Position numbers and translations under genes: made by a program
Part shown: positions 21,657-59,866 of the stretch, piece by piece
Layout: each line of letters opens with the position of its first letter
Position numbering within the stretch: the stretch's first letter is position 1
The notes under the pieces: generated by a model
Databases searched by the model: none
The model's input: the letters and a program-made list of their open reading frames with translations, nothing else
What the model was told of the DNA's origin: nothing
NCBI RefSeq assembly: GCF_003334385.1
Contig: NZ_QOWN01000029.1
DNA length: 59,866 nucleotides
Source of the DNA: Escherichia coli
Lineage (GTDB): Bacteria > Pseudomonadota > Gammaproteobacteria > Enterobacterales > Enterobacteriaceae
Reading direction: 5' to 3' (one strand)

Positions 21657-23735
21657 TTAAATCAATGCCGATTTATCAATTCCCAGCCGCTTCATCCGTG
21701 ACAGCAGGGTCGTGCGTTTCAGCCCCAGACGTTGCGCAGCGCCTTTAGGCCCGGCAACCACGCCGTTGGTTTCTTTCAGCACGCGCACAATCAACTGATA
21801 TTCATCTTCGCCCTCCAGGGCGACAACCGTTGCGGCAGGCGGCGTTTCAGGTTCCGGTAAAACAATATCTGGCAATGACAGCTGCAGCACGTTACCGCGT
21901 GTTAGCAATACCGCGCGCTCAATGACGTTTTCCAGTTCGCGTACGTTACCCGGCCACTCCATGTTGCTCAAGGTGCGCAGCGTCTCGGCAGGAATGCTGT
22001 CGATATTGCGCCCCAGACGACGGGCAATTTTGAAGGTAAAGGCTTTCGCCAGCAGCGGAATATCTTCCGGACGCTCGCGTAGTGGCGGCAGGTGAATCGG
22101 GAATACGTTCAGGCGGTAATAGAGATCGCTACGGAACTCACGGTCGGCGACCATTTTTTTCAGATCGCGGTTAGTCGCGGCGATTAGACGCACGTCCGTC
22201 TGAATGATTTTGTTGCTGCCGAGACGTTCAAACTCCTGTTCCTGCAATACACGCAGCAACTTCGGCTGTAACTCCAGTGGCATATCGCCCACTTCGTCGA
22301 GGAACAGGGAGCTTTTATCCGCCAGTTCAAAACGACCGATACGCTGGGCGCTGGCACCGGTAAAAGCCCCACGCTCATGACCAAACAGATCGCTTTCCAG
22401 CAATCCGGCAGGCATCGCCGCGCAGTTCATTTTGACCATGCGGCGATTATTACGCCCACTGAGATTATGGATCGCACGGGCAATCAGCTCTTTACCCGTG
22501 CCAGTTTCACCGAGGATCAGCACGGTACTGTCACTTTGCGCCACCATTTCAACTTGTTTAAGCACGCTGTACATGGCTTCGCTGCGGCCAATAATCTCGC
22601 CAAATTCACTATCAACATTGTTGAGCTGCTCGGTCAGGGCGAGGTTTTCATCAACCAGCCGTTCTTTCAGACGATGGATTTCCTGATAGGCGAGGGCGTT
22701 ATCGACAGCGATTGCCACACGTTCGGCAATCTGGCGCAGTAAATTCAGATTGGTAGTGGTAAACACTTTCTCTTCGCATTGCGCCAGTTTCAGCACGCCC
22801 AGCATGGTGTCGCCAGACATCAGCGGTAACAGGCACAAGGTTTGAATCTGGTTGCCCCAGGTGTCGAACAACATGCGTTCATAGGGGGCTAAATCGTCCC
22901 GCTCGTGGAGATTGATCAGCAGCATCTCTTTACTTTTGAACACGCGTTCGGTGAGGGTTCCGGCTTCATCGACTTCGCTCTGTTCGTGGGCGGGATGCTG
23001 TTTATCAAGATAGTGAGTGGAGTAGATGTTGAGTTTGTTTTTACGGTGGCTGCGTAAGACGATACTGATATCGTCAATGTCGAAATAGTAATGGATTTCT
23101 TTGGCGACTTCGCTGACCAGTTCGTCCATATCCAGGCGGGAAAGCACCGCGTTGGTGATGGCGACCAGGATGCGGAAGTTATCGCGTTCCCGGCATAACA
23201 ACTCATAGTCGACATTGTTAACGACGCGGCTCTGGATTTGTTCGGTGACGACAGAAACGATCTGCGTAAATGTTTGCAGACGATTGAACTCTTTTTCGCT
23301 CCAGGGGCGATCGTCATAACGAATAAATTCACAGCCACCAAAAATATGCCCTTCCGCCGCCAGTGGCATCAGGCAATAGTGACCAAATTTTGGGTATAGC
23401 CCACCTGCGTCCAGCTGCGGCCAGGTTTCACAAAATTCTTCGTAACTGCAATGCAGCGTATCAGGGCGCGACAAAATGCTGCGTACCGGACCGTGTGCCA
23501 GAACAGTTTCGTCTTCATATTTAATGGGGGTGTCTTTTTCACGCGACGCGTAATAAGACGCACGTTGAGTCTGCGCTTGCCACAACACAATAGCCGCGTT
23601 GTCGGCGAGCGCAGAACGCTTTACCAGTTGCGAAAGAGCCTCACACAGCGAGGCCAGATCGGGCTGCTGCAATAGTGTCCGAGTGATGTCGAACAACCCT
23701 TGTTGTCCGAGATCACTCATCGGTGTATATGACAT
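21657..23735 (-). CDS. fhlA: Formate hydrogenlyase transcriptional activator (sigma54 enhancer-binding protein)
   Basis: 692-aa product from MSYTPMSDLGQQ; GAF domains, AAA+ sigma54-interaction domain ([14 protein letters not shown]), C-terminal HTH. Confidence 0.95.
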   Translation of the reverse strand: MSYTPMSDLGQQGLFDITRTLLQQPDLASLCEALSQLVKRSALADNAAIVLWQAQTQRASYYASREKDTPIKYEDETVLAHGPVRSILSRPDTLHCSYEEFCETWPQLDAGGLYPKFGHYCLMPLAAEGHIFGGCEFIRYDDRPWSEKEFNRLQTFTQIVSVVTEQIQSRVVNNVDYELLCRERDNFRILVAITNAVLSRLDMDELVSEVAKEIHYYFDIDDISIVLRSHRKNKLNIYSTHYLDKQHPAHEQSEVDEAGTLTERVFKSKEMLLINLHERDDLAPYERMLFDTWGNQIQTLCLLPLMSGDTMLGVLKLAQCEEKVFTTTNLNLLRQIAERVAIAVDNALAYQEIHRLKERLVDENLALTEQLNNVDSEFGEIIGRSEAMYSVLKQVEMVAQSDSTVLILGETGTGKELIARAIHNLSGRNNRRMVKMNCAAMPAGLLESDLFGHERGAFTGASAQRIGRFELADKSSLFLDEVGDMPLELQPKLLRVLQEQEFERLGSNKIIQTDVRLIAATNRDLKKMVADREFRSDLYYRLNVFPIHLPPLRERPEDIPLLAKAFTFKIARRLGRNIDSIPAETLRTLSNMEWPGNVRELENVIERAVLLTRGNVLQLSLPDIVLPEPETPPAATVVALEGEDEYQLIVRVLKETNGVVAGPKGAAQRLGLKRTTLLSRMKRLGIDKSALI

Positions 23736-23808: not shown

Positions 23809-24819
23809 TTAGCATATACGCGGAAGCGGTTCGGCGTGTGGTAAATCGAGGGTTCGTTTCACGCCATACAGACCGGCAAGACGAACACCTTTACGTTCCA
23901 CCACTTCACCAATCAGCGCCGCGTCTTTCCCCAGTGGATGGGAATGTAACGCTGCCAGCACTTGCTCTGCCGCGTTGCGTTCAACAGCTATTACTAGTTT
24001 GCCTTCGTTGGCAAAGTTCAGGGCGTCCAGTCCCAGCAATTCGCAAACGCCACGCACGGCAGGTTTAACAGGCAGTGCCGCTTCTGAAAGTTCAATACCA
24101 CAACCGCAGGCTGCCGCGAACTCATGAACCACCGCGTTTACACCACCACGGGTGGCATCACGCAGCGCTTTCACGCCGGGAATGTCACGCAGCGTCTGAA
24201 TAAGCGGCGTCAGCACCGCGCAGTCGCTGACCAGTTCGCCATCCAGCCCCAGCTGCTCACGCAGGTTAAGGATAGTCGCCCCGTGGTCGCCGAGTGTACC
24301 GCTCACCAGCAATACATCGCCTGCGGTTAGCGTCTGTGCGCCCCAGTGAATATTCGCCGGAATTGCGCCCATGCCAGCGGTGTTGATAAACAGTTTATCT
24401 ACCGCGCCGCGCTGCACCACTTTAGTATCGCCAGTAACGATGGCAATGCCTGCCGCGCGGGCGGTTTCTGCCATGCTGGTCACTACGGCTTTCAGTGTCT
24501 CCATCGGCAATCCTTCTTCGAGGATAAAGCCACAGGAGAGATAGCGCGGAATAGCGCCACTGACCGCAACGTCATTGGCTGTGCCGCAAATCGCCAGCTT
24601 GCCGATATTACCGCCAGGGAAGAACAGCGGGTCAATAACGTAACTGTCGGTGGAGAACGCCAGACGGTCGCCTTCCGCTACCAGCTGCGCCAGATCAAGA
24701 CGTGCCTGATCTTCCTGCTCTGCCAGCCACGGGTTGGCAAAGGCTTCCATAAACAGGCTGTTGATTAATTGCTGCATCGCCTGGCCGCCGCTACCGTGGG
24801 CGAGTTGGATATTATTCAC
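23809..24819 (-). CDS. hypE: Hydrogenase maturation protein HypE (carbamoyl dehydratase)
   Basis: 336-aa ORF, AIR-synthase-like, C-terminal PRIC. Confidence 0.95.
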   Translation of the reverse strand: MNNIQLAHGSGGQAMQQLINSLFMEAFANPWLAEQEDQARLDLAQLVAEGDRLAFSTDSYVIDPLFFPGGNIGKLAICGTANDVAVSGAIPRYLSCGFILEEGLPMETLKAVVTSMAETARAAGIAIVTGDTKVVQRGAVDKLFINTAGMGAIPANIHWGAQTLTAGDVLLVSGTLGDHGATILNLREQLGLDGELVSDCAVLTPLIQTLRDIPGVKALRDATRGGVNAVVHEFAAACGCGIELSEAALPVKPAVRGVCELLGLDALNFANEGKLVIAVERNAAEQVLAALHSHPLGKDAALIGEVVERKGVRLAGLYGVKRTLDLPHAEPLPRIC

Positions 24820-25937
24820 GCTTCACTCTCCTGCTGACGATACTGATACCACGCGGCGCACGCTCCTTCGGAGGAAACCATCAGCGCACCAAACGCGGTT
24901 TGAGGATTACAGGTGTTACCAAACAGCGGGCATTGATGCGGCTTACATTTGCCCGTTAATACCTCACCACAACGCGCGCGCGGGTCATCGCAGACCTGCT
25001 GCGGTGCCGGGCGGAAATGTGCTTCGGCATCGAATCGTTGATAATCCGGCGTCAGGTGCACGCCAGAAGATTCAATCACGCCTAAGCCGCGCCATTCGCT
25101 GTCGCCGTTGACACAGAACACATCGGCAATCGCCTGTTGCGCCAGCAGGTTACCGGCATCCGGTACCACTCGACGATACTGATTCTCTACCTTGCTGTGG
25201 GCCGCTATTTTCTGCTGCACCAGCATGACCACGCCTTGTAGTAGATCAAGGGGTTCGAATCCAGCAACCACCAGCGGACGATGAAAATCGCTGGCGATAA
25301 AATTATAGGCGTCGGTGCCGATAACCATACTGACGTGACCCGGCGCGAGGAACGCATCGATACCGTTATCCGGCTGTTCCAGCAAACTGCGCAACGTCGG
25401 GATAAGCGTAATGTGCTGGCAGAAGAAGTAAAAATTCTGCACATCACGCGCTTTCGCCTGTTGCAGAGTGATAGCGGTGGTCGGCATAGTGGTTTCAAAA
25501 CCTAAGCCGAAGAACACCACTTTGCGGGTTGGATTCTCCTGCGCCAGTTTCAACGCATCCATCGGCGAGTAAACGATGCGCACATCGGCACCGCGTGCTT
25601 TTGCCTGCAACAGCGATCCCTGTTTCCCCGGCACGCGCATGGCGTCGCCAAAGGTACAGAAGATGACTTCCGGATGGCTGGCAATCTCCACGCAGGTGTC
25701 GATTCTACCCATCGGCAGTACGCACACCGGGCACCCCGGACCGTGGATAAACTCAACGTTTTCCGGCAGTAACTGGTCGAGGCCGAATTTAAAGATAGCG
25801 TGGGTATGACCGCCACACACTTCCATAATCCGCAGAGGGCGTTCGGCGGTGTAAGAGAGATGTGAAGCACGTTCGCGCAGATGCTCAATTAACTGCATCA
25901 CCTGTTCCGGCGCGCGATATTCATCAACAAAACGCAT
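24816..25937 (-). CDS. hypD: Hydrogenase maturation protein HypD (Fe-S)
   Basis: 373-aa ORF with CGxH and GPGCPVC motifs. Confidence 0.95.
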   Translation of the reverse strand: MRFVDEYRAPEQVMQLIEHLRERASHLSYTAERPLRIMEVCGGHTHAIFKFGLDQLLPENVEFIHGPGCPVCVLPMGRIDTCVEIASHPEVIFCTFGDAMRVPGKQGSLLQAKARGADVRIVYSPMDALKLAQENPTRKVVFFGLGFETTMPTTAITLQQAKARDVQNFYFFCQHITLIPTLRSLLEQPDNGIDAFLAPGHVSMVIGTDAYNFIASDFHRPLVVAGFEPLDLLQGVVMLVQQKIAAHSKVENQYRRVVPDAGNLLAQQAIADVFCVNGDSEWRGLGVIESSGVHLTPDYQRFDAEAHFRPAPQQVCDDPRARCGEVLTGKCKPHQCPLFGNTCNPQTAFGALMVSSEGACAAWYQYRQQESEA

Positions 25938-26209
25938 TATTTTTCCTCGCCATACAACAGCGCGCCGACATCCGGCTCAACGTCAAACATGTTTTGTAAG
26001 GCGTCGAGAGTGTCGCGTGCTTCGGCTTCATTAATTACGCTCATGGCAAAGCCAACGTGTACCAGTACCCACTGGCCCACGCGCGGCTGACCGTTTTCAT
26101 CGCAGTTGCCGACTAACGTTAAATCGACATCGCGCTGAATGCCGCAGACGTCGACTTTCGCCTGGTTGCCGTCAATGGTGCGGATCTGGCCGGGAACGCC
26201 TATGCACAT
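25937..26209 (-). CDS. hypC: Hydrogenase maturation chaperone HypC
   Basis: 90-aa product starting MCIGVPGQ (conserved N-terminal Cys2). Confidence 0.9.
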
Positions 26210-27072
26210 CGCTGTGTCTCCAGCCAGTTCAGCCACTGGTCCATCCCTTCGCCGCTGGTGGCGGAAATAAGGATGATTTCAATTTCTGGATTGACTTCGC
26301 GGGCGCAGGCGATGCACTTTTCAACGTCAAAGTTGAGATACGGCAACAGGTCAACTTTGTTGAGCAGCATCAGCGAGGCGGCGGCAAACATATGCGGATA
26401 TTTCAGCGGTTTGTCTTCACCTTCGGTAACGGAAAGCACCGCCACTTTGTGTTTTTCACCGAGATCGAAGCTGGCCGGGCATACGAGGTTGCCAACGTTT
26501 TCGATAAACAGAATACCGTTATCGTCCAGTGGCAGACGCGGTGCGGCGTCGGCAATCATCTGTGCGTCAAGATGGCAGCCTTTACCGGTGTTCACCTGAA
26601 TCGCTGGTGTGCCGGTAGCGCGAATGCGTGCGGCATCGTTCACGGTTTGCTGGTCGCCTTCAATAACTGCGCACGGAACGCTGTCTTTCAGGCGCATTAG
26701 GGTTTCCGTCAGCAGGGTGGTTTTACCGGAACCAGGGCTGGAAACCAGGTTGAGCACCAGTTGCTTGCGGGCAGCAAAGCGCGCGCGGTTGCGTTCAGCC
26801 AGACGGTTATTTTTGTCCAGCACGTCAATTTCGACTTCCAGCATCCGACGCTGGCTCATGCCCGGTGCGTGAGTGCCCGCTTCGCCATGACCGTAATGCA
26901 GGTCGCCTTCTTCAGTCTGGCTGGGGGTAAATTCAGGCGCTTTAATGCCGGTGATTTTCATCTTCGGGCGTGCCGCCGGGGCAAATGGCGCGCTACGAAA
27001 CGCGGAATGAGGGTTATGTTCATCACCCTCGATATACAGGTTGCCTTCACCGCAACCGCATGTTGTACACAT
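26200..27072 (-). CDS. hypB: Hydrogenase nickel incorporation GTPase HypB
   Basis: 290-aa ORF, N-terminal CxxCGC metal site, His-rich stretch, GTPase motif GSGKTT. Confidence 0.95.
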
Positions 27073-27075
27073 CGC

Positions 27076-27426
27076 TCACTCCTGGTCTATTTCTATCCGC
27101 CGAATCTGTAAACCGTCGTCTGCCACAATCTGCAGCATGTCACCATGACACTGTGGACAGCGGCGGACGCGCTGGGTCAGTAGCGTCACATACTGTTGGC
27201 ATGTTTCACACCAGCATTCGGCCTCTTGTTCTTCGAGGTGCAGTTTACAACCTTCCGCCACGCTGCCGCGGCAAACCAGATCAAAACAAAAGGCAAGAGA
27301 GCTGGTTTCGACACAAGAAAATGCGCCAATTTTGAGCCAGACCCCAGTTACGCGTTTTGCGCCGTGTTTTGCGGCCTGCTGTTCGATCAATTCCAGTGCC
27401 CGTTGGCAGAGGGTTATTTCGTGCAT
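27076..27426 (-). CDS. hypA: Hydrogenase nickel incorporation protein HypA
   Basis: 116-aa product starting MHEITLCQ with two CxxC zinc motifs. Confidence 0.9.
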   Translation of the reverse strand: MHEITLCQRALELIEQQAAKHGAKRVTGVWLKIGAFSCVETSSLAFCFDLVCRGSVAEGCKLHLEEQEAECWCETCQQYVTLLTQRVRRCPQCHGDMLQIVADDGLQIRRIEIDQE

Positions 27427-27457
27427 ATCGCCTCCCATTAACTATTGCCAGCTACAA

Positions 27458-27472
27458 GCAATAATTGTGCCA
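27458..27472 (-). promoter_or_regulatory. sigma54 (-24/-12) promoter for the hyp operon
   Basis: Minus-strand TGGCACAATTATTGC (GG-N10-GC), about 30 nt upstream of hypA start. Confidence 0.65.
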
Positions 27473-27585
27473 GTGTTGATTATCCCTGCGGTGAATAATG
27501 TCGATGATGTCGAAATGACACGTCGACACGGCGACGAAATTCATCTTTAGCTTAAAAATCTCTTTAATAACAATAAATTAAAAGT

Positions 27586-27601
27586 TGGCACAAAAAATGC
27601 T
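27586..27601 (+). promoter_or_regulatory. sigma54 (-24/-12) promoter for the hyc operon
   Basis: TGGCACAAAAAATGCT (GG-N10-GC), about 37 nt upstream of hycA start. Confidence 0.65.
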
Positions 27602-27637
27602 TAAAGCTGGCATCTCTGTTAAACGGGTAACCTGACA

Positions 27638-28099
27638 ATGACTATTTGGGAAATAAGCGAGAAAGCCGATTACATCGCACAGCGGCATCGTCGCCTACAG
27701 GACCAGTGGCACATCTACTGCAATTCGCTGGTTCAGGGGATCACGTTATCGAAAGCGCGCCTGCATCACGCCATGAGCTGCGCGCCGGACAAAGAACTCT
27801 GTTTCGTCCTTTTTGAACATTTTCGCATTTACGTCACCCTGGCGGATGGCTTTAACAGCCACACCATCGAGTATTACGTCGAAACAAAAGATGGCGAAGA
27901 CAAACAGCGGATTGCGCAGGCGCAACTGAGCATTGACGGCATGATTGATGGCAAGGTCAACATCCGCGATCGCGAACAGGTTCTGGAACACTATCTCGAA
28001 AAAATCGCTGGCGTTTACGACAGCTTATACACCGCTATTGAAAACAATGTGCCGGTGAATTTAAGCCAACTGGTAAAGGGACAAAGCCCGGCAGCATGA
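27638..28099 (+). CDS. hycA: Formate hydrogenlyase regulatory protein HycA
   Basis: 153-aa ORF starting MTIWEISEKADYIAQRH. Confidence 0.9.
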   Translation: MTIWEISEKADYIAQRHRRLQDQWHIYCNSLVQGITLSKARLHHAMSCAPDKELCFVLFEHFRIYVTLADGFNSHTIEYYVETKDGEDKQRIAQAQLSIDGMIDGKVNIRDREQVLEHYLEKIAGVYDSLYTAIENNVPVNLSQLVKGQSPAA

Positions 28100-28223
28100 G
28101 CTGAGGCTTTGCCCGTTTTGCAGGCGTTACGCCTGTTTGGGGATGGGCGTGTCGATGAGTGTCGAAAATGACATTTCATCGGCATGTTTTCGTCAAAAAT
28201 GACAATCACCTGAGGAATGCCTG

Positions 28224-28835
28224 GTGAATCGTTTTGTAATTGCTGACTCCACGCTCTGTATCGGCTGCCACACTTGTGAGGCCGCCTGTTCAGAGACGCA
28301 TCGCCAGCACGGCCTGCAATCAATGCCGCGCCTGAGAGTGATGCTGAATGAAAAAGAATCTGCGCCGCAGCTCTGTCACCACTGTGAAGATGCACCCTGC
28401 GCGGTGGTCTGCCCGGTTAACGCCATCACCCGCGTCGATGGGGCCGTGCAGTTGAATGAAAGCCTGTGCGTAAGCTGCAAGCTGTGCGGCATCGCCTGCC
28501 CGTTTGGCGCAATTGAATTTTCCGGCAGCCGTCCGCTGGATATTCCGGCAAACGCCAATACCCCGAAAGCGCCACCGGCACCGCCTGCTCCGGCGCGTGT
28601 CAGCACATTGCTTGACTGGGTGCCAGGTATTCGCGCGATCGCCGTCAAATGTGACCTTTGTAGCTTTGATGAACAAGGTCCGGCCTGCGTGCGGATGTGC
28701 CCGACTAAAGCCCTGCATCTGGTGGATAACACCGATATCGCCCGCGTCAGCAAACGTAAGCGTGAGCTGACCTTTAACACGGACTTTGGCGATCTCACCT
28801 TGTTTCAGCAGGCTCAAAGTGGAGAGGCTAAATGA
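28224..28835 (+). CDS. hycB: FHL complex iron-sulfur subunit HycB (4x [4Fe-4S] ferredoxin)
   Basis: 203-aa ORF with four CxxCxxCxxxCP clusters. Confidence 0.95.
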   Translation: MNRFVIADSTLCIGCHTCEAACSETHRQHGLQSMPRLRVMLNEKESAPQLCHHCEDAPCAVVCPVNAITRVDGAVQLNESLCVSCKLCGIACPFGAIEFSGSRPLDIPANANTPKAPPAPPAPARVSTLLDWVPGIRAIAVKCDLCSFDEQGPACVRMCPTKALHLVDNTDIARVSKRKRELTFNTDFGDLTLFQQAQSGEAK

Positions 28836-30658
28836 GCGCAATTTCCCTGATCAATAGCGGCGTGGCGTGGTTTGTCGCCGCCGCTGTTCTGGCATTTCTC
28901 TTTTCTTTTCAAAAAGCGTTAAGTGGCTGGATAGCTGGAATTGGCGGCGCGGTTGGTAGTCTGTATACGGCAGCCGCGGGCTTCACTGTACTGACTGGCG
29001 CGGTTGGCGTGAGCGGTGCGCTGTCGCTGGTAAGCTACGATGTGCAAATCTCTCCGCTTAACGCGATTTGGCTGATTACGCTCGGTCTGTGCGGTCTGTT
29101 TGTCAGCCTCTACAACATTGACTGGCATCGCCACGCGCAGGTGAAGTGCAACGGCTTGCAGATCAATATGTTGATGGCTGCCGCCGTCTGCGCCGTCATT
29201 GCCAGCAACCTCGGCATGTTCGTGGTAATGGCCGAAATCATGGCCCTGTGCGCGGTGTTCCTCACCAGCAACAGCAAAGAGGGCAAACTGTGGTTTGCGC
29301 TGGGGCGTCTTGGCACTCTGCTGCTGGCGATTGCTTGCTGGCTGCTGTGGCAGCGTTACGGCACGCTGGATCTGCGCCTGCTGGATATGCGTATGCAACA
29401 GCTGCCGCTCGGTTCCGATATCTGGCTGCTCGGAGTGATTGGCTTTGGCCTGCTGGCCGGGATTATTCCGCTGCACGGCTGGGTGCCACAGGCACATGCG
29501 AACGCCTCTGCGCCAGCTGCCGCGTTGTTTTCTACGGTAGTCATGAAAATTGGCCTGCTGGGCATTTTAACCCTGTCACTGCTGGGCGGTAATGCACCGC
29601 TGTGGTGGGGGATCGCGCTGCTGGTGCTCGGCATGATCACCGCGTTTGTCGGTGGTCTGTATGCGCTGGTGGAGCACAACATCCAGCGCCTGCTGGCTTA
29701 CCACACCCTGGAAAATATCGGCATCATCCTGCTGGGGCTGGGCGCTGGCGTAACGGGTATCGCGCTCGAACAACCGGCGCTGATTGCTCTTGGCCTGGTC
29801 GGTGGTCTGTACCATCTGCTTAACCATAGCCTGTTCAAAAGCGTACTGTTCCTCGGGGCGGGGAGCGTCTGGTTCCGTACCGGTCATCGCGATATCGAAA
29901 AACTCGGTGGTATTGGCAAGAAAATGCCGGTTATCTCCATCGCCATGTTAGTCGGGCTGATGGCAATGGCTGCGCTGCCGCCGCTGAATGGTTTTGCCGG
30001 GGAATGGGTTATCTATCAATCATTTTTCAAACTGAGCAATAGTGGCGCGTTTGTTGCCCGTCTGCTGGGGCCGCTGCTCGCTGTGGGGCTGGCAATTACC
30101 GGTGCGCTGGCGGTGATGTGTATGGCGAAAGTCTATGGCGTCACGCTCCTCGGCGCGCCGCGCACCAAAGAAGCCGAAAACGCCACCTGTGCGCCGCTCC
30201 TGATGAGCGTAAGCGTAGTGGCACTGGCGATTTGCTGCGTAATTGGCGGTGTTGCTGCGCCGTGGCTACTGCCGATGCTCTCTGCTGCTGTACCTCTGCC
30301 GCTGGAGCCTGCTAACACCACCGTTTCTCAACCGATGATCACGTTGCTGCTGATTGCCTGCCCGCTGCTGCCATTCATCATTATGGCGATTTGCAAAGGC
30401 GATCGTTTGCCATCGCGTTCCCGCGGTGCGGCCTGGGTGTGCGGTTACGACCACGAAAAATCAATGGTGATTACCGCTCACGGTTTTGCCATGCCGGTGA
30501 AACAGGCGTTTGCGCCGGTGCTGAAACTACGCAAATGGCTGAATCCGGTGTCTCTGGTGCCGGGCTGGCAGTGCGAGGGGAGTGCGTTGCTGTTCCGCCG
30601 GATGGCGCTGGTTGAACTGGCGGTACTGGTGGTGATTATTGTTTCACGAGGAGCCTGA
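28832..30658 (+). CDS. hycC: FHL complex membrane subunit HycC (NuoL/Mrp antiporter-like)
   Basis: 608-aa polytopic membrane ORF. Confidence 0.95.
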   Translation: MSAISLINSGVAWFVAAAVLAFLFSFQKALSGWIAGIGGAVGSLYTAAAGFTVLTGAVGVSGALSLVSYDVQISPLNAIWLITLGLCGLFVSLYNIDWHRHAQVKCNGLQINMLMAAAVCAVIASNLGMFVVMAEIMALCAVFLTSNSKEGKLWFALGRLGTLLLAIACWLLWQRYGTLDLRLLDMRMQQLPLGSDIWLLGVIGFGLLAGIIPLHGWVPQAHANASAPAAALFSTVVMKIGLLGILTLSLLGGNAPLWWGIALLVLGMITAFVGGLYALVEHNIQRLLAYHTLENIGIILLGLGAGVTGIALEQPALIALGLVGGLYHLLNHSLFKSVLFLGAGSVWFRTGHRDIEKLGGIGKKMPVISIAMLVGLMAMAALPPLNGFAGEWVIYQSFFKLSNSGAFVARLLGPLLAVGLAITGALAVMCMAKVYGVTLLGAPRTKEAENATCAPLLMSVSVVALAICCVIGGVAAPWLLPMLSAAVPLPLEPANTTVSQPMITLLLIACPLLPFIIMAICKGDRLPSRSRGAAWVCGYDHEKSMVITAHGFAMPVKQAFAPVLKLRKWLNPVSLVPGWQCEGSALLFRRMALVELAVLVVIIVSRGA

Positions 30659-30660
30659 GA

Positions 30661-31584
30661 ATGAGTGTTTTATATCCGTTAATTCAGGCGCTGGTGTTAT
30701 TTGCCGTTGCGCCGCTGCTCTCCGGTATAACCCGCGTGGCGCGCGCCCGCTTGCATAACCGTCGCGGGCCGGGCGTGTTGCAGGAGTATCGCGACATTAT
30801 CAAACTGCTGGGGCGTCAGAGCGTCGGCCCGGATGCCTCCGGCTGGGTGTTCCGCCTGACGCCGTATGTGATGGTGGGCGTCATGCTGACTATCGCTACT
30901 GCGCTGCCGGTGGTGACCGTCGGTTCTCCGCTGCCGCAACTGGGTGATTTGATCACCTTACTGTATCTCTTTGCCATCGCGCGTTTCTTCTTTGCCATTT
31001 CTGGTCTGGATACCGGTAGCCCGTTTACCGCTATCGGCGCGAGCCGTGAAGCGATGCTTGGCGTGCTGGTCGAACCGATGCTGCTGCTTGGTCTGTGGGT
31101 TGCCGCACAGGTTGCCGGTTCCACCAACATCAGCAACATCACCGACACCGTTTATCACTGGCCGCTGAGCCAGAGCATCCCGCTGGTACTGGCGCTTTGT
31201 GCCTGTGCGTTCGCCACCTTTATCGAAATGGGCAAACTGCCGTTCGACCTGGCGGAAGCCGAGCAGGAGCTGCAGGAAGGCCCGCTCTCTGAATACAGCG
31301 GCAGCGGCTTTGGCGTCATGAAATGGGGTATCAGCCTGAAACAGCTGGTGGTGTTGCAGATGTTCGTCGGGGTGTTTATTCCGTGGGGACAAATGGAAAC
31401 CTTCACCGCCGGTGGACTGCTGCTGGCGCTGGTGATTGCCATCGTAAAACTGGTGGTCGGCGTCCTGGTTATCGCGCTGTTCGAAAACAGCATGGCCCGT
31501 CTGCGTCTTGATATTACTCCGCGCATTACCTGGGCTGGGTTTGGCTTTGCATTTTTAGCGTTCGTCTCCTTGCTGGCGGCGTGA
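30661..31584 (+). CDS. hycD: FHL complex membrane subunit HycD (NuoH-like)
   Basis: 307-aa membrane ORF. Confidence 0.95.
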   Translation: MSVLYPLIQALVLFAVAPLLSGITRVARARLHNRRGPGVLQEYRDIIKLLGRQSVGPDASGWVFRLTPYVMVGVMLTIATALPVVTVGSPLPQLGDLITLLYLFAIARFFFAISGLDTGSPFTAIGASREAMLGVLVEPMLLLGLWVAAQVAGSTNISNITDTVYHWPLSQSIPLVLALCACAFATFIEMGKLPFDLAEAEQELQEGPLSEYSGSGFGVMKWGISLKQLVVLQMFVGVFIPWGQMETFTAGGLLLALVIAIVKLVVGVLVIALFENSMARLRLDITPRITWAGFGFAFLAFVSLLAA

Positions 31585-31601
31585 TTAAAGAGAGTTTGAG
31601 C

Positions 31602-33311
31602 ATGTCTGAAGAAAAATTAGGTCAACATTATCTCGCCGCGCTGAATGAGGCATTTCCGGGCGTCGTGCTGGACCACGCCTGGCAGACCAAAGATCAGCTG
31701 ACTGTCACCGTAAAGGTGAACTACCTGCCGGAAGTGGTGGAGTTTCTTTACTACAAACAGGGTGGCTGGCTGTCGGTGCTGTTTGGTAACGACGAACGCA
31801 AACTGAATGGTCATTACGCCGTTTACTACGTGCTGTCGATGGAGAAGGGCACTAAGTGTTGGATTACGGTTCGCGTCGAAGTTGACGCCAACAAACCGGA
31901 ATATCCGTCCGTGACGCCGCGCGTTCCGGCGGCGGTGTGGGGCGAGCGTGAAGTGCGCGATATGTACGGTTTGATTCCGGTTGGTCTGCCGGATGAACGT
32001 CGTCTGGTGCTGCCGGATGACTGGCCGGATGAACTTTATCCGCTGCGTAAAGACAGCATGGATTATCGTCAGCGTCCGGCACCGACCACCGATGCTGAAA
32101 CCTACGAGTTCATCAACGAACTGGGCGACAAGAAAAACAACGTCGTGCCGATTGGTCCGCTGCACGTCACTTCTGATGAACCGGGCCACTTCCGTCTGTT
32201 CGTCGATGGCGAAAACATTATCGACGCCGACTACCGTCTGTTCTACGTCCATCGCGGCATGGAAAAACTGGCGGAAACCCGTATGGGTTATAACGAAGTG
32301 ACCTTCCTCTCTGACCGTGTGTGCGGGATCTGCGGCTTTGCCCACAGCACCGCCTACACCACGTCGGTGGAAAACGCGATGGGTATTCAGGTGCCAGAAC
32401 GTGCGCAGATGATCCGCGCCATTCTGCTGGAGGTAGAACGCTTGCACTCGCATCTGCTCAACCTTGGCCTGGCCTGTCACTTTACCGGCTTCGACTCCGG
32501 CTTTATGCAGTTCTTCCGCGTGCGTGAAACCTCCATGAAAATGGCAGAGATCCTTACCGGTGCGCGTAAAACCTACGGCCTGAACTTGATCGGCGGGATT
32601 CGTCGCGATCTGCTGAAAGACGACATGATCCAGACCCGCCAGCTGGCACAACAGATGCGTCGTGAAGTGCAGGAGCTGGTGGATGTGCTGCTGAGCACTC
32701 CGAACATGGAACAGCGCACTGTCGGCATTGGTCGTCTGGACCCGGAAATCGCTCGCGACTTCAGTAACGTCGGCCCGATGGTCCGTGCCAGCGGTCACGC
32801 CCGTGATACCCGCGCCGATCACCCGTTTGTCGGCTATGGCCTGCTGCCAATGGAAGTCCACAGCGAGCAGGGCTGCGACGTTATTTCCCGTCTGAAAGTG
32901 CGTATCAACGAAGTCTATACCGCGCTGAACATGATCGACTACGGTCTGGATAACCTGCCGGGTGGCCCACTGATGGTGGAAGGCTTTACCTACATTCCGC
33001 ACCGCTTTGCGCTGGGCTTTGCCGAAGCGCCGCGCGGCGATGATATCCACTGGAGCATGACCGGCGACAACCAGAAGCTGTACCGCTGGCGCTGCCGTGC
33101 CGCGACCTACGCGAACTGGCCGACCCTGCGCTACATGCTGCGCGGCAACACCGTTTCCGATGCGCCGCTGATTATCGGTAGCCTCGACCCTTGCTACTCC
33201 TGTACCGACCGCATGACCGTGGTCGATGTGCGTAAGAAGAAGAGCAAAGTGGTGCCGTACAAAGAACTCGAGCGTTACAGCATTGAGCGTAAAAACTCGC
33301 CGCTGAAATAA
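31602..33311 (+). CDS. hycE: Hydrogenase 3 large subunit HycE ([NiFe], NuoCD-like)
   Basis: 569-aa product from MSEEKLGQHY; N-terminal RxCGxC and C-terminal DPCxSC nickel ligands. Confidence 0.95.
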   Translation: MSEEKLGQHYLAALNEAFPGVVLDHAWQTKDQLTVTVKVNYLPEVVEFLYYKQGGWLSVLFGNDERKLNGHYAVYYVLSMEKGTKCWITVRVEVDANKPEYPSVTPRVPAAVWGEREVRDMYGLIPVGLPDERRLVLPDDWPDELYPLRKDSMDYRQRPAPTTDAETYEFINELGDKKNNVVPIGPLHVTSDEPGHFRLFVDGENIIDADYRLFYVHRGMEKLAETRMGYNEVTFLSDRVCGICGFAHSTAYTTSVENAMGIQVPERAQMIRAILLEVERLHSHLLNLGLACHFTGFDSGFMQFFRVRETSMKMAEILTGARKTYGLNLIGGIRRDLLKDDMIQTRQLAQQMRREVQELVDVLLSTPNMEQRTVGIGRLDPEIARDFSNVGPMVRASGHARDTRADHPFVGYGLLPMEVHSEQGCDVISRLKVRINEVYTALNMIDYGLDNLPGGPLMVEGFTYIPHRFALGFAEAPRGDDIHWSMTGDNQKLYRWRCRAATYANWPTLRYMLRGNTVSDAPLIIGSLDPCYSCTDRMTVVDVRKKKSKVVPYKELERYSIERKNSPLK

Positions 33312-33320
33312 GGAATCGCC

Positions 33321-33863
33321 ATGTTTACCTTTATCAAAAAAGTCATCAAAACCGGCACGGCGACCTCGTCTTATCCGCTGGAGCCGATTGCGGTTGATAA
33401 AAACTTCCGTGGTAAGCCAGAGCAGAACCCGCAGCAGTGCATCGGCTGCGCGGCCTGCGTCAATGCCTGCCCGTCAAACGCCTTAACGGTTGAAACTGAC
33501 CTCGCCACAGGAGAGCTTGCCTGGGAGTTTAATCTTGGGCACTGCATCTTCTGTGGACGCTGCGAAGAAGTCTGCCCGACGGCGGCGATCAAACTGTCGC
33601 AAGAGTACGAACTGGCGGTGTGGAAGAAAGAAGACTTCCTGCAACAGTCCCGCTTCGCGCTGTGCAACTGCCGCGTCTGCAATCGTCCTTTCGCCGTCCA
33701 GAAAGAGATCGACTACGCCATTGCGCTGCTTAAGCACAACGGCGACAGCCGCGCGGAAAACCACCGCGAAAGCTTTGAGACTTGCCCGGAATGTAAGCGC
33801 CAGAAATGCCTGGTGCCGTCCGACCGTATTGAACTGACTCGCCATATGAAAGAGGCCATCTGA
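33321..33863 (+). CDS. hycF: FHL complex iron-sulfur subunit HycF (NuoI-like)
   Basis: 180-aa ORF with two CxxCxxCxxxCP motifs. Confidence 0.95.
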
Positions 33864-34630
33864 TGAGCAATTTATTAGGCCCCCGTGACGCCAACGGCAT
33901 TCCGGTCCCCATGACGGTGGATGAATCCATCGCCAGCATGAAGGCGTCGTTACTGAAAAAAATCAAACGTTCTGCCTATGTTTACCGCGTGGACTGCGGC
34001 GGCTGCAACGGTTGCGAAATCGAAATTTTCGCCACGCTTTCGCCGCTGTTTGATGCAGAACGCTTCGGCATTAAAGTCGTTCCTTCACCGCGTCATGCGG
34101 ATATTTTACTGTTTACCGGCGCGGTCACCCGTGCAATGCGATCCCCTGCGCTGCGTGCGTGGCAGTCCGCGCCGGACCCGAAAATTTGTATCTCCTACGG
34201 TGCCTGCGGTAACAGTGGCGGGATCTTCCACGATCTCTACTGCGTGTGGGGCGGTACGGATAAAATTGTCCCTGTGGATGTTTATATCCCTGGCTGCCCG
34301 CCAACGCCTGCCGCCACGCTGTACGGCTTTGCAATGGCGCTCGGCCTGCTGGAGCAGAAAATTCACGCCCGTGGGCCGGGTGAACTGGATGAACAACCGG
34401 CGGAGATCCTGCATGGTGATATGGTGCAGCCGCTGCGCGTGAAAGTGGATCGCGAAGCACGTCGCCTGGCGGGTTATCGTTACGGTCGTCAGATTGCCGA
34501 TGATTACCTTACACAGTTAGGGCAGGGCGAAGAACAGGTTGCACGCTGGCTGGAAGCGGAAAACGATCCGCGTCTGAACGAGATTGTCAGCCATCTGAAT
34601 CATGTTGTTGAAGAGGCGCGTATCCGATGA
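33863..34630 (+). CDS. hycG: Hydrogenase 3 small subunit HycG (NuoB-like)
   Basis: 255-aa ORF with CGGCNGC and GCPP motifs. Confidence 0.95.
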
Positions 34631-35037
34631 GTGAAAAGGTGGTGTTCAGTCAACTGAGCCGTAAATTTATTGATGAGAACGATGCCACGCCCGCCGAGGC
34701 GCAGCAGGTGGTCTATTACAGCCTGGCGATTGGTCACCACCTTGGGGTTATCGATTGCCTGGAAGCGGCGCTCACCTGCCCGTGGGATGAATATCTGGCA
34801 TGGATTGCCACTCTGGAGGCAGGCAGTGAAGCCCGCCGCAAAATGGAAGGCGTGCCGAAATATGGTGAGATCGTCATCGACATTAACCATGTGCCGATGC
34901 TGGCCAACGCATTCGATAAAGCCCGGGCAGCGCAAACTTCGCAGCAGCAGGAATGGAGTACAATGCTGTTAAGTATGCTGCATGATATTCATCAGGAAAA
35001 CGCCATCTATTTGATGGTGAGGAGACTGCGTGACTGA
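34627..35037 (+). CDS. hycH: FHL maturation protein HycH
   Basis: 136-aa ORF, overlaps hycG stop. Confidence 0.9.
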
Positions 35038-35500
35038 CGTTTTACTCTGTGTTGGCAATAGCATGATGGGCGATGATGGCGCAGGTCCGCTGCTGGCGGA
35101 AAAGTGCGCCGCCGCGCCGAAAGGTAACTGGGTGGTGATTGACGGCGGTAGCGCACCGGAAAACGACATCGTCGCTATCCGTGAACTGCGCCCGACACGA
35201 CTGCTGATTGTCGACGCCACGGATATGGGGCTAAACCCCGGCGAGATCCGCATCATCGACCCGGATGATATCGCCGAGATGTTTATGATGACTACCCATA
35301 ACATGCCGTTGAATTACCTTATCGACCAGTTGAAAGAAGATATTGGCGAAGTGATTTTCCTCGGCATTCAGCCGGATATCGTCGGCTTTTACTACCCGAT
35401 GACCCAGCCGATTAAAGATGCGGTAGAAACCGTTTATCAACGACTGGAAGGCTGGGAAGGAAATGGCGGCTTCGCGCAGTTAGCGGTGGAAGAAGAGTAG
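35030..35500 (+). CDS. hycI: Hydrogenase 3 maturation endopeptidase HycI
   Basis: 156-aa ORF starting [20 protein letters not shown]. Confidence 0.95.
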   Translation: MTDVLLCVGNSMMGDDGAGPLLAEKCAAAPKGNWVVIDGGSAPENDIVAIRELRPTRLLIVDATDMGLNPGEIRIIDPDDIAEMFMMTTHNMPLNYLIDQLKEDIGEVIFLGIQPDIVGFYYPMTQPIKDAVETVYQRLEGWEGNGGFAQLAVEEE

Positions 35501-39819: not shown

Positions 39820-39967
39820 ACATTGTCATCACATGTCATCGTCACTAGTGTCGATGACATCGTTTTTCCTGCATTACAGAAATTAATTTCCTTAAATAAC
39901 AGTAAATTAAAAACTGGCATGATTTGTGAATGTATCGGCGCATTAACTGTCATTGCTGGAGAATTTG

Positions 39968-40495
39968 ATGAACCGTTTCATCATTGCTGACGCGAGTAAA
40001 TGTATTGGTTGCCGTACCTGTGAAGTAGCGTGCGTGGTTTCTCATCAGGAAAATCAGGACTGTGCATCGCTGACCCCGGAAACTTTTTTACCGCGTATCC
40101 ATGTCATTAAAGGTGTGAACATTTCCACGGCGACAGTTTGCCGTCAGTGTGAAGATGCACCGTGCGCTAACGTCTGCCCGAATGGTGCTATCAGCCGTGA
40201 TAAAGGGTTTGTTCATGTGATGCAGGAACGTTGCATTGGTTGCAAAACCTGCGTTGTGGCTTGCCCGTATGGTGCGATGGAAGTGGTGGTACGTCCGGTG
40301 ATCCGCAACAGCGGCGCGGGTCTGAATGTACGGGCTGACAAAGCCGAAGCCAATAAATGCGACCTGTGCAACCATCGTGAAGACGGCCCGGCGTGTATGG
40401 CGGCTTGCCCGACTCATGCGCTGATTTGTGTCGATCGTAATAAACTTGAACAACTGAGCGCAGAAAAACGCCGCCGTACGGCGCTGATGTTCTAA
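39968..40495 (+). CDS. hydN: Electron transport ferredoxin-like protein HydN
   Basis: 175-aa product from [22 protein letters not shown]; multiple 4Fe-4S motifs. Confidence 0.9.
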
Positions 40496-40647
40496 AAATC
40501 TTACAGAACTGTTCTGGCATCAAAGGAATTCCCGGAAATATTCGTAGAATACGGAGCGGGCGGTATCGCCGACCTGTGACTGCCGGATGCGACGCTGTCG
40601 TGTCCGGCAGGGCGGGTTACGCAATTCATGATGGCGGGAATAACTCA

Positions 40648-42900
40648 ATGGCAAAAAACACATCTTGCGGTGTCCAACTGCGTATTCGTGGCAAAGTGCA
40701 GGGCGTCGGTTTTCGTCCGTTTGTCTGGCAGCTGGCACAGCAATTAAATCTTCACGGCGATGTCTGTAATGACGGCGATGGCGTAGAAGTCCGGCTGCGG
40801 GAAGACCCGGAAACGTTTCTTGTTCAATTGTATCAGCACTGCCCGCCGCTGGCGCGTATTGATAGCGTCGAGCGTGAGCCGTTTATCTGGTCACAACTGC
40901 CCACCGAGTTCACTATACGCCAGAGCACAGGCGGCACCATGAATACGCAAATTGTTCCCGATGCCGCTACTTGCCCTGCTTGCCTTGCCGAAATGAATAC
41001 CCCAGGCGAACGGCGTTATCGTTATCCGTTTATCAACTGTACCCACTGCGGCCCGCGTTTCACCATTATTCGCGCCATGCCTTACGACCGCCCGTTTACC
41101 GTGATGGCGGCGTTTCCGCTATGTCCGGCCTGTGACAAAGAGTACCGTGACCCGCTCGATCGTCGCTTCCACGCCCAGCCGGTGGCCTGCCCGGAGTGTG
41201 GCCCGCATCTTGAATGGGTAAGTCATGGTGAACATGCGGAACAAGAGGCGGCATTACAGGCAGCTATCGCACAGTTAAAAATGGGCAAAATTGTCGCCAT
41301 CAAAGGGATTGGCGGATTTCATCTTGCCTGCGATGCACGTAACAGTAACGCGGTGGCGACACTTCGGGCGCGCAAACATCGCCCGGCGAAACCGCTGGCG
41401 GTCATGTTGCCAGTGGCTGACGGTTTACCAGACGCTGCGCGCCAGTTGCTTACCACGCCCGCCGCGCCGATTGTGCTGGTGGATAAAAAATACGTTCCTG
41501 AGCTTTGTGATGATATCGCCCCTGACCTTAACGAAGTCGGGGTAATGTTGCCTGCGAACCCGCTCCAGCATTTGCTGTTACAGGAACTGCAATGCCCGCT
41601 GGTGATGACCTCCGGCAACCTGAGCGGTAAACCACCAGCTATCAGCAACGAACAGGCGCTGGCGGATTTGCAGGGCATTGCCGACGGATTCTTGATACAT
41701 AACCGCGACATCGTGCAGCGGATGGATGATTCGGTGGTGCGCGAAAGCGGCGAAATGCTGCGCCGTTCGCGGGGGTATGTGCCGGATGCGCTGGCTTTGC
41801 CTCCGGGCTTTAAAAATGTTCCGCCTGTGCTGTGTCTCGGCGCGGATCTGAAAAATACCTTCTGCCTGGTGCGCGGTGAACAAGCGGTGTTGAGTCAGCA
41901 TCTGGGCGATTTAAGTGACGATGGCATCCAGATGCAGTGGCGCGAAGCGTTACGCCTGATGCAAAACATCTACGATTTTACCCCGCAATACGTTGTGCAT
42001 GACGCGCATCCGGGCTATGTCTCCAGCCAGTGGGCGCGTGAAATGAATCTGCCGACGCAAACGGTACTGCATCATCATGCCCATGCAGCGGCGTGTCTGG
42101 CAGAGCATCAGTGGCCGCTGGATGGCGGTGATGTCATTGCTTTGACGCTCGACGGTATCGGTATGGGGGAGAACGGCGCTTTGTGGGGCGGCGAGTGCCT
42201 GCGGGTGAACTATCGCGAATGTGAGCACCTGGGCGGCTTGCCTGCAGTGGCGCTTCCGGGTGGCGATTTGGCAGCGAAGCAGCCGTGGCGAAACCTGCTG
42301 GCGCAGTGCCTGCGCTTTGTGCCGGAGTGGCAGAATTACTCTGAAACAGCAAGTGTGCAACAGCAAAACTGGAGCGTGCTGGCGCGGGCCATTGAGCGTG
42401 GAATTAACGCGCCGCTGGCGTCATCGTGTGGGCGTTTTTTCGATGCAGTGGCGGCGGCACTGGGCTGTGCGCCAGCCACGTTAAGTTATGAAGGTGAAGC
42501 GGCTTGTGCTCTGGAGGCGCTCGCAGCCTCATGCCACGGAGTGACGCATCCGGTGACAATGCCGCGGGTGGACAATCAACTGGATCTCGCCACTTTCTGG
42601 CAGCAGTGGCTGAACTGGCAGGCACCGGTTAATCAACGCGCGTGGGCGTTTCATGATGCGCTGGCGCAGGGTTTTGCCGCGTTGATGCGTGAGCAGGCCA
42701 CGATGCGTGGTATCACTACGCTGGTATTTAGCGGCGGGGTTATTCATAACCGTTTGCTGCGTGCACGTCTGGCGCATTATCTCGCTGATTTCACATTGCT
42801 CTTTCCACAGAGTTTACCGGCGGGTGATGGCGGTTTGTCTCTGGGGCAGGGGGTTATTGCTGCGGCGCGTTGGTTAGCGGGTGAAGTCCAGAACGGATAA
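40648..42900 (+). CDS. hypF: Carbamoyltransferase HypF (hydrogenase maturation)
   Basis: 750-aa product from [28 protein letters not shown] (acylphosphatase domain), two Zn-finger CxxC pairs, YrdC and Kae1-like domains. Confidence 0.95.
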
Positions 42901-59427: not shown

Positions 59428-59520
59428 GGTGAGGTGGCCGAGAGGCTGAAGGCGCTCCCCTGCTAAGGGAGTATGCGGTCAAAAGCTGCATCCGGGGTTC
59501 GAATCCCCGCCTCACCGCCA
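59428..59520 (+). tRNA. serV: tRNA-Ser (anticodon GCU), 93 nt with long variable arm
   Basis: GGTGAGGTGGCCGAGAGG...CCCCTGCTAAGGGAG...GGTTCGAATCCCCGCCTCACCGCCA; cloverleaf with anticodon GCT and encoded CCA. Confidence 0.95.
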
Positions 59521-59523
59521 TTT

Positions 59524-59600
59524 GCATCCGTAGCTCAGCTGGATAGAGTACTCGGCTACGAACCGAGCGGTCGGAGGTTCGAATCCTCCCGGATGCACCA
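59524..59600 (+). tRNA. argV: tRNA-Arg (anticodon ACG), 77 nt
   Basis: GCATCCGTAGCTCAGCTGGATAGAGTACTCGGCTACGAACCGAGCGGTCGGAGGTTCGAATCCTCCCGGATGCACCA; anticodon ACG, encoded CCA; only 3 nt after serV. Confidence 0.95.
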
Positions 59601-59798
59601 TATTCTACGTACTTTCAGCGATGAAGGTATGGAAGAGGTGGCGGTAATAACCGCAGGCACCAGGGAGGATAACGTTGCTTTAGCAACGGCCCGAAGGGCG
59701 AGCCGCAAGGCGAGTAATCCTCCCTGATGCACCATCTCTTACTTGATACGGCTTTAGTAGCGGTATCAAAAAATCTGCAGTAAAGTAAGTTTCCCGAT

Positions 59799-59866
59799 GC
59801 ATCCGTAGCTCAGCTGGATAGAGTACTCGGCTACGAACCGAGCGGTCGGAGGTTCGAATCCTCCCG
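59799..59866 (+). tRNA. tRNA-Arg (anticodon ACG), second copy, truncated by the window edge
   Basis: Identical to argV over the 68 nt present; the window ends before the last 9 nt. Confidence 0.9.

Follow-up and report, generated by a model that had tools for sequence, protein, structure and literature searches.

The window, that is, the whole analysed stretch of 59,866 nucleotides of Escherichia coli DNA, carries the hyp and hyc operons back to back. The gene order is mutS, ygbA, fhlA, hypEDCBA, spacer, hycABCDEFGHI, ascBFG, hydN-hypF and norWV/norR. The features of this part of the window are the following:

21657-23735, minus strand: fhlA, 692 amino acids, 100% identical to K-12; enhancer-binding activator that senses formate; final gene of the hyp transcription unit
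23809-27426, minus strand: hypEDCBA
27076-27426, minus strand: hypA, 116 amino acids, 100% identical to K-12; first gene of hypABCDE-fhlA
27427-27637: hypA-hycA intergenic spacer, 211 bp
27638-28099, plus strand: hycA, 153 amino acids, 100% identical to K-12; first gene of hycABCDEFGHI
27638-35500, plus strand: hycABCDEFGHI
39968-42900: hydN-hypF

The locus itself (27000-28200, 1.2 kb) matches several E. coli K-12 records at 100% identity. These 1.2 kb around the spacer are present in all 5,426 of the 5,426 complete E. coli genomes, with hypB, hypA and hycA as annotated features. Over a longer range, positions 6998-48200 align to a 41-kb stretch of a K-12 record with 99.82% identity (73 mismatches, 2 gaps). 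The window is thus the E. coli chromosome of a strain other than K-12. The proteins of the nine hyc and five hyp genes, fhlA, hydN and hypF align at full length to those of K-12, without stops and with 98.9-100% identity. The initial annotation had placed its subject in the hypA-hycA intergenic region, with fhlA just beyond the hyp operon and with all hyc, hyp, hydN and hypF genes intact. Annotation and K-12 identity bear out the first point, the position of fhlA directly after hypE the second, and the protein alignments the third.

The true start of hypA is the ATG at 27426. The mechanical open reading frame begins at an ATG at 27438 (120 amino acids), but the conserved GGAGG at 27431-27436 and the annotation both point to 27426. 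An Rfam scan found no RNA family in the spacer; its only hits were three tRNA genes at the far end of the window (59428-59866, plus strand), the last of them cut by the window edge. As a separate remark on annotation, the RefSeq entry for one of the compared genomes (NZ_CM170063.1, our L001, 14658-16736) calls fhlA 'flhA' ('formate hydrogenlyase transcriptional activator FlhA'), a symbol mix-up with the flagellar export gene.

The spacer contains two outward-facing -24/-12 elements. Both read at exactly the coordinates given by the initial annotation, one facing hypA and the other hycA. On the plus strand, 27458-27472 reads gcaataattgtgcca. Its reverse complement, TGGCACAATTATTGC, is the minus-strand element toward hypA. 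The element toward hycA is TGGCACAAAAAATGCT, at 27586-27601 on the plus strand. Their separation, first estimated at about 115 bp, is 113 bp between motif edges (27473-27585) and 128 bp between motif centres. As 17-mers, and with the starts predicted from them, they are:

27457-27473, minus strand: hyp operon sigma-54 promoter, CTGGCACAATTATTGCT; GG at 27471-27470, GC at 27459-27458
27585-27601, plus strand: hyc operon sigma-54 promoter, TTGGCACAAAAAATGCT; GG at 27587-27588, GC at 27599-27600
27446, minus strand: predicted start of the hyp transcript; the hypA ATG at 27426 follows 20 nt downstream
27612, plus strand: predicted start of the hyc transcript; the hycA ATG at 27638 follows 26 nt downstream

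Compared with the consensus TGGCACNNNNNTTGC, the hyp element has no mismatch and the hyc element has one. In both, the GG and GC dinucleotides lie exactly 10 bp apart within TGGCAC-N5-TTGCW. The hyp element matches this pattern in full, and the hyc element has A for T before GC. Both are correctly oriented, and the distance from the end of the element to the start codon is 30 nt for hypA and 36 nt for hycA. The predicted starts follow the published rule of 19 bp downstream of the motif centre (PMC4591121), which reproduces the tabulated distances of 20 (hypA) and 26 (hycA). Entries for hycA and hypA were not found in two genome-wide start-site supplements (Kim 2012, Cho 2014).

These elements have long been known as the back-to-back sigma-54 promoters of E. 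coli hyc and hyp, and there is nothing new in their identification. The initial annotation had called the arrangement a known architecture of the formate regulon, and so it is: the elements coincide with the published sigma-54 sites upstream of hycA and hypA. PMC3844500 credits Lutz et al. 1990 with their first description, as 'divergent NtrA-dependent promoters'. The K-12 promoters (Lutz, Bohm, Beier and Bock 1990, Mol Microbiol 4:13; EcoCyc hycAp and hypAp; ChIP-seq sites OS27 and OS28) are the same object, with 17-mers identical letter for letter. In the sigma-54 ChIP-seq of MG1655, OS28 (hypA), with a FAT of 201 and a PSSM score of 14.09, leads both tables (135 sites) in FAT and in matrix score. 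OS27 (hycA) has a FAT of 91, the third highest, and a PSSM score of 12.36 (PMC4591121). Both are flagged 'C', experimentally confirmed promoters in EcoCyc, per Bonocora et al. 2015, and the activator of hypA is named as FhlA (PMC4591121). These cultures were aerobic, in M9, and the data report occupancy, not activity (PMC4591121). Genomic SELEX with the sigma-54 holoenzyme alone, in vitro, likewise recovered the hycA/hypA spacer (PMC8743547). The same divergent arrangement is found in Salmonella Typhimurium (Samuels et al. 2013), where sigma-54 binding to the homologous sites and sigma-54-dependent expression were demonstrated (PMC3844500). The Salmonella elements differ in having TGGCAT instead of TGGCAC and other spacer bases (TGGCATGGAAAATGCT and TGGCATAAATATTGCT). 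Occupancy by sigma-54 is thus a published result; the strength, conservation and spacing of the elements come from the present analysis.

A short consensus can also be matched by chance in an AT-rich spacer. In favour of such an origin, the window shows no enrichment for the loose consensus TGGCACNNNNNTTGC with one mismatch (10 matches against 7.0 +/- 2.7 expected). The consensus is therefore uninformative at this scale, and we used weight-matrix scans instead. The first matrix was built from 130 ChIP-seq sites (Bonocora et al. 2015) lying outside the window and applied to both strands, about 120,000 positions. The hyp element ranked first (20.38) and the hyc element second (18.16). The known norV promoter came third (17.29) and the known hydN promoter fifth. 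A second, independent matrix, printed in PMC7658346 and based on the 186 promoters compiled by Barrios, placed the hyp and hyc elements first and third in the window. Both are therefore top-ranked with two independent matrices. Among 100 first-order Markov windows simulated at the same size, only 8 hold any site scoring 18.16 or more. From the top two scores and these simulations, two outward sites in one 211-bp spacer are far beyond chance.

We then turn to conservation. A pattern scan with the N-terminal codons of hypA over species-representative genomes gave 120 loci, 88 of them with a divergent hycA within 190-800 bp. They cover Escherichia, Citrobacter, Enterobacter, Kluyvera, Kosakonia, Buttiauxella, Cedecea, Shimwellia, Serratia, Rahnella, Hafnia, Pantoea and Yersinia ruckeri. 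A strong outward -24/-12 element is present on each side in 88/88 of these other divergent loci, with TGGC and TGC invariant, and both elements are conserved in at least 25 genera. In the Enterobacteriaceae, the offsets to the start codon are nearly fixed (hyp, 27-34 nt; hyc, 34-37 nt). With the matrix scores, this conservation and the occupancy in vivo refute a chance origin, whose probability we regard as negligible.

More precisely, a phylogenetic footprint of 63 distinct orthologous spacers of up to 240 nt shows sharply bounded conserved blocks. They are the hypA ribosome-binding site, the hyp -12 and -24 boxes, positions 27498-27525, scattered positions in 27566-27584, the hyc -24 and -12 boxes, and the hycA leader. 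On the hyp side, TGGCA (-24) and TTATTGC (-12) are at least 90-95% conserved in the 63 spacers, and the ribosome-binding CCTCC of hypA (as read on the spacer strand) at least 90%. On the hyc side, TGGCA and TGCT are invariant. Conversely, 27526-27565 is essentially unconstrained.

Binding does not by itself make a promoter. The two motifs could hold polymerase without promoter activity, with hyc and hyp transcribed from other promoters. The hyp operon is known to have an additional FNR-dependent promoter inside hypA, which would agree with this possibility. Within hypA (27076-27426), we found no match to the FNR consensus with up to two mismatches. Most of the 135 ChIP-seq sites also appear transcriptionally inactive under the conditions tested (PMC4591121). 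Against this, the two sites are intergenic and correctly oriented, their predicted starts lie 20 and 26 nt before the first genes, and they are flagged as confirmed. In Salmonella, a promiscuous sigma-54 activator raises hyc 26-fold and hyp 5.6-fold (PMC3844500). Moreover, the spacer has no good sigma-70-type promoter toward either gene, and both elements are kept in 88/88 loci together with a conserved adjacent enhancer. We hold this alternative to be very improbable. A separate observation concerns the window as a whole, where the FNR-like pattern TTGATNNNNATCAA with up to two mismatches occurs 48 times, against 25.8 in shuffles (0/100 shuffles reach 48). The excess may be compositional.

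The two promoters also form the arms of a 27-nt inverted repeat (27446-27472 and 27586-27612; 81% complementary). It runs beyond the -12 boxes to the predicted starts, with TGCTTnnAGCTGGCA on both sides, and this extension is seen in Escherichia only. We rejected the repeat as a separate functional unit, since conservation of the stretch beyond -12 (AGCTGGCA) is confined to Escherichia. It is mostly two copies of one consensus.

The conserved block between the promoters resembles an enhancer. The features considered from here on, in the spacer and downstream of hycA, are these:

27498-27525: intergenic FhlA-type upstream activating sequence, ATGTCGATGA-TGTCGAAATGACA-CGTCG
27526-27567: stretch of low conservation that separates the enhancer from the IHF-like site, holding a weakly conserved ACGAAAT half-site at 27534-27540
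27568-27580, plus strand: IHF-like site, TAACAATAAATTA, one mismatch to WATCARNNNNTTR; ends 5 bp before the hyc TGGCA
28150-28204: further cluster of FhlA-type sites, between hycA and hycB, TGTCGATGAGTGTCGAAAATGACA ... TTTTCGTCAAAAATGACA

The block 27498-27525 has a nearly invariant core, TGWCGAAATGACA(Y)GTC, which matches published FhlA motifs. It contains two direct repeats of ATRATGTCG. The core TGWCGAAATGACA is found with up to two mismatches in about 66 loci. Its centre (27514) lies at about -98 from the predicted hyc start and about -68 from the predicted hyp start. Published descriptions of the FhlA site are TGWC-RAWRAT-GWCA, with a 13-site matrix (PMC7658346), and CATTTCGTACGAAATG, from Leonhartsberger et al. 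2000 in the form quoted in PMC4987338. Such recognition sequences (TGWC-RAWRAT-GWCA; CATTTCGT/ACGAAATG half-sites) are present in both spacers of the hyc region. With the FhlA matrix, the best match in the 59.9-kb window is TGTCGAAAATGACA at 28160-28173 (score 17.5), in the hycA-hycB spacer. The second best, at 27499-27512, falls inside the conserved intergenic block, and a further match lies at 28191-28204, again between hycA and hycB. The top two matches of the window thus fall in the hyp-hyc and hycA-hycB spacers, a result that is partly circular because the matrix was built in part from characterised sites of this region. The footprint, which is independent of the matrix, marks the same bases in 27498-27525.

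The initial annotation expected FhlA sites between the promoters and flanking them. Between them there is indeed one compact block, 27498-27525. The flanking cluster is also real, but it lies at 28150-28204, about 550 bp outside the coordinates then given. Nearly all of 75 enterobacterial loci keep TTTCGTCAAAAATGAC (28188-28204) of this cluster. Serratia is among them, with a perfect palindrome, TTTCGTCAAAAGTGACGAAA. TTTCGTCAAAAATGAC resembles an FhlA site and is situated within the hyc transcript, where hycB has its ribosome-binding region; the hycB GTG (28224) follows 20 nt further on. TGTCG/GACA and TTTCGT repeats occur likewise upstream of hydN in the window, and of fdhF and hyfA in MG1655. 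A multiple alignment of five FhlA-regulon upstream regions was too divergent to define the motif alone.

Spacing is given as the distance between the centre of the core TGWCGAAATGACA and the T of each TGGCA. Toward hyc, the distance in Enterobacteriaceae takes the values 50 bp (3 loci), 61-64 bp (27 loci) and 72-74 bp (35 loci) only, classes drawn from related genomes that represent few independent indel events. The changes are steps of about 11 bp, and the indels between genera fall in the unconserved spacer 27526-27567. Leonhartsberger et al. in 2000 are said to have placed FhlA on one face of the helix. Toward hyp, 45 loci have a distance of 40-42 bp and 11 loci one of 52-54 bp. GC-rich palindromic REP-like elements were inserted repeatedly into the hypA-hycA spacer of Buttiauxella, Cedecea, Shimwellia and one Enterobacter-labelled genome and have enlarged it to 239-801 bp. 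An example is CCCTCACCC...GGGTGAGGG; the elements occur in spacers L026, L051, L067, L075, L087, L094, L104 and L036 (Cedecea, Buttiauxella, Shimwellia). These inserts (30-590 bp) always separate the hyp -24 element from the enhancer and never the enhancer from the hyc promoter. The enhancer-to-hyc distance stays at 73-74 bp in the enlarged spacers, and no extra copy of the enhancer was seen beside hyp in them.

The side facing hyc also carries the IHF-like site. The exact IHF consensus WATCARNNNNTTR is absent from the hypA-hycA spacer in E. coli, where the site has one mismatch; its conserved positions in the footprint (CAA, TTA) are the consensus positions. An IHF consensus 5-6 bp upstream of the hyc TGGCA is found in 52/89 loci (27 exact, 25 with one mismatch). 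As a control, the hyp side has one with up to one mismatch in 1/89 loci. Hopper et al. in 1994 reportedly found IHF binding between the enhancer and the hyc promoter.

Given the spacing classes, the REP-like inserts on the hyp side and the IHF-like site on the hyc side only, the simplest reading of these sequences is that enhancer, IHF bend and hyc promoter may form one rigid, phase-locked module. The hyp promoter would be activated without a dedicated bend and would tolerate changes in distance. This reading accords with what Hopper et al. 1994 and Leonhartsberger et al. 2000 reportedly found. We see about an even chance that a single compact FhlA enhancer serves both promoters by these two geometries: an IHF-bent, helical-phase-locked loop to hyc, and a distance-tolerant contact to hyp.

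The same observations admit another arrangement. The intergenic enhancer could serve hyc alone, with hyp activated from the cluster between hycA and hycB, which lies some 720 bp upstream of its start, rather than from the enhancer 68 bp away. The phase-locked fixed distance to hyc but not to hyp, the tolerance of 30-590 bp REP-like inserts on the hyp side, and the IHF-like site confined to the hyc side would all fit. So would the conserved second FhlA-type cluster between hycA and hycB, which Schlensog et al. in 1994 reportedly assigned as the hyp enhancer. On the other hand, the enhancer-to-hyp distance is narrow in most genera (the 45 loci at 40-42 bp and the 11 at 52-54 bp), which is unexpected if the enhancer is irrelevant to hyp. 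Enhancers of this class also work in either orientation. We consider this arrangement a serious possibility, slightly short of an even chance.

Other systems help to place the hyc/hyp pair. The zraP/zraSR promoters of E. coli are also back-to-back sigma-54 promoters, with the binding sites of the activator between them. They are about 150 bp apart (OS38 and OS39, centres 4199755 and 4199909) and differ in the activator, ZraR, and in the signal, zinc. In the same FhlA regulon, the hydN-hypF and fdhF promoters have a sigma-54 element and TGTCG/GACA-type repeats 50-110 bp upstream. Unlike the divergent hyc/hyp pair, they are single promoters. In the window, norR-norVW also has a sigma-54 promoter beside the gene of an enhancer-binding protein. 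Here only norV has a sigma-54 promoter, and the enhancer sites are NorR sites (GT-N7-AC). These elements are located as follows:

39824-39930, plus strand: hydN-hypF control region, with TGTCA/TGTCG repeats at 39824-39862, 50-90 bp upstream; ChIP-seq site OS26
39897-39909, plus strand: hydN IHF-like site, TAACAGTAAATTA, 5 bp before the -24 element, the same offset as at hyc
39914-39930, plus strand: hydN sigma-54 element, CTGGCATGATTTGTGAA
45645-45661, minus strand: norV sigma-54 promoter in the norR-norV spacer, CTGGCACGCAATCTGCA, third-best site in the window

The hydN and hyc promoters have in common the IHF-like TAACARTAAATTA before the -24 element. At hydN the -12 box is atypical, GTGAA in place of TGCA/T, and occupancy is low, with a FAT of 11 (PMC4591121). 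Within 25 kb, the window carries four sigma-54 promoters and two genes for enhancer-binding proteins (fhlA and norR). norV and norW carry 10 of the amino acid differences from K-12.

Two further sigma-54-like sequences lie inside hyc genes. One, GTGGCACATCTACTGCA (27706-27722, plus strand), covers hycA codons 23-28, 69 nt into the gene, and points downstream. It ranks fourth in the window (13.8; 15.0 with the Barrios matrix) and is absent from the high- and low-stringency ChIP-seq lists that we searched, where the very strong peaks next to it may hide its signal. The other, GTGGCGCGTTTGTTGCC (30042-30058, plus strand), is inside hycC and is the published weak intragenic sigma-54 site IS31 (FAT 1), in sense orientation.

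Considering the spacer as a whole, it is almost certainly the control region of the formate regulon core, with FhlA-activated divergent sigma-54 promoters for hyc and hyp-fhlA. The outward promoters would drive hycABCDEFGHI (hydrogenase 3 / formate hydrogenlyase) and hypABCDE-fhlA (hydrogenase maturation and the activator). Sigma-54 RNA polymerase would be parked on both as a closed complex, unable to start alone. On accumulation of formate, formate-bound FhlA at the TGWCG/GACA repeat block 27498-27525 would hydrolyse ATP and open the complexes. The IHF-type bend just upstream of the hyc -24 would fold the enhancer, which lies about 98 bp upstream, back onto the polymerase, with the helical phase locked. 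On the hyp side, which has no bend site, the enhancer-promoter distance would be free to vary. In this scheme the dependence on formate and FhlA, the IHF binding, the start points and the choice of enhancer by hyp are drawn from the literature or deduced; formate binding by FhlA is summarised in PMC11291172 and PMC11841067. As fhlA is the last gene of the hyp unit, positive feedback would be expected. Likewise, hycA (annotated formate hydrogenlyase regulator, an anti-activator) is the first gene of hyc, which suggests negative feedback.

Characterisation of the promoters dates from 1990, and genome-wide studies of 2013, 2015 and 2021 confirmed them again. The pattern of spacing across genera is perhaps undescribed so far, and it fits textbook enhancer looping and the 1990s biochemistry of the locus. 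The spacing data are mainly useful for engineering hyc/hyp expression for biohydrogen: the part of the spacer that can be altered is 27526-27567, in whole helical turns, and the other part is fixed. For E. coli, this region is the master switch of fermentative hydrogen production and a classic example of enhancer-dependent transcription.
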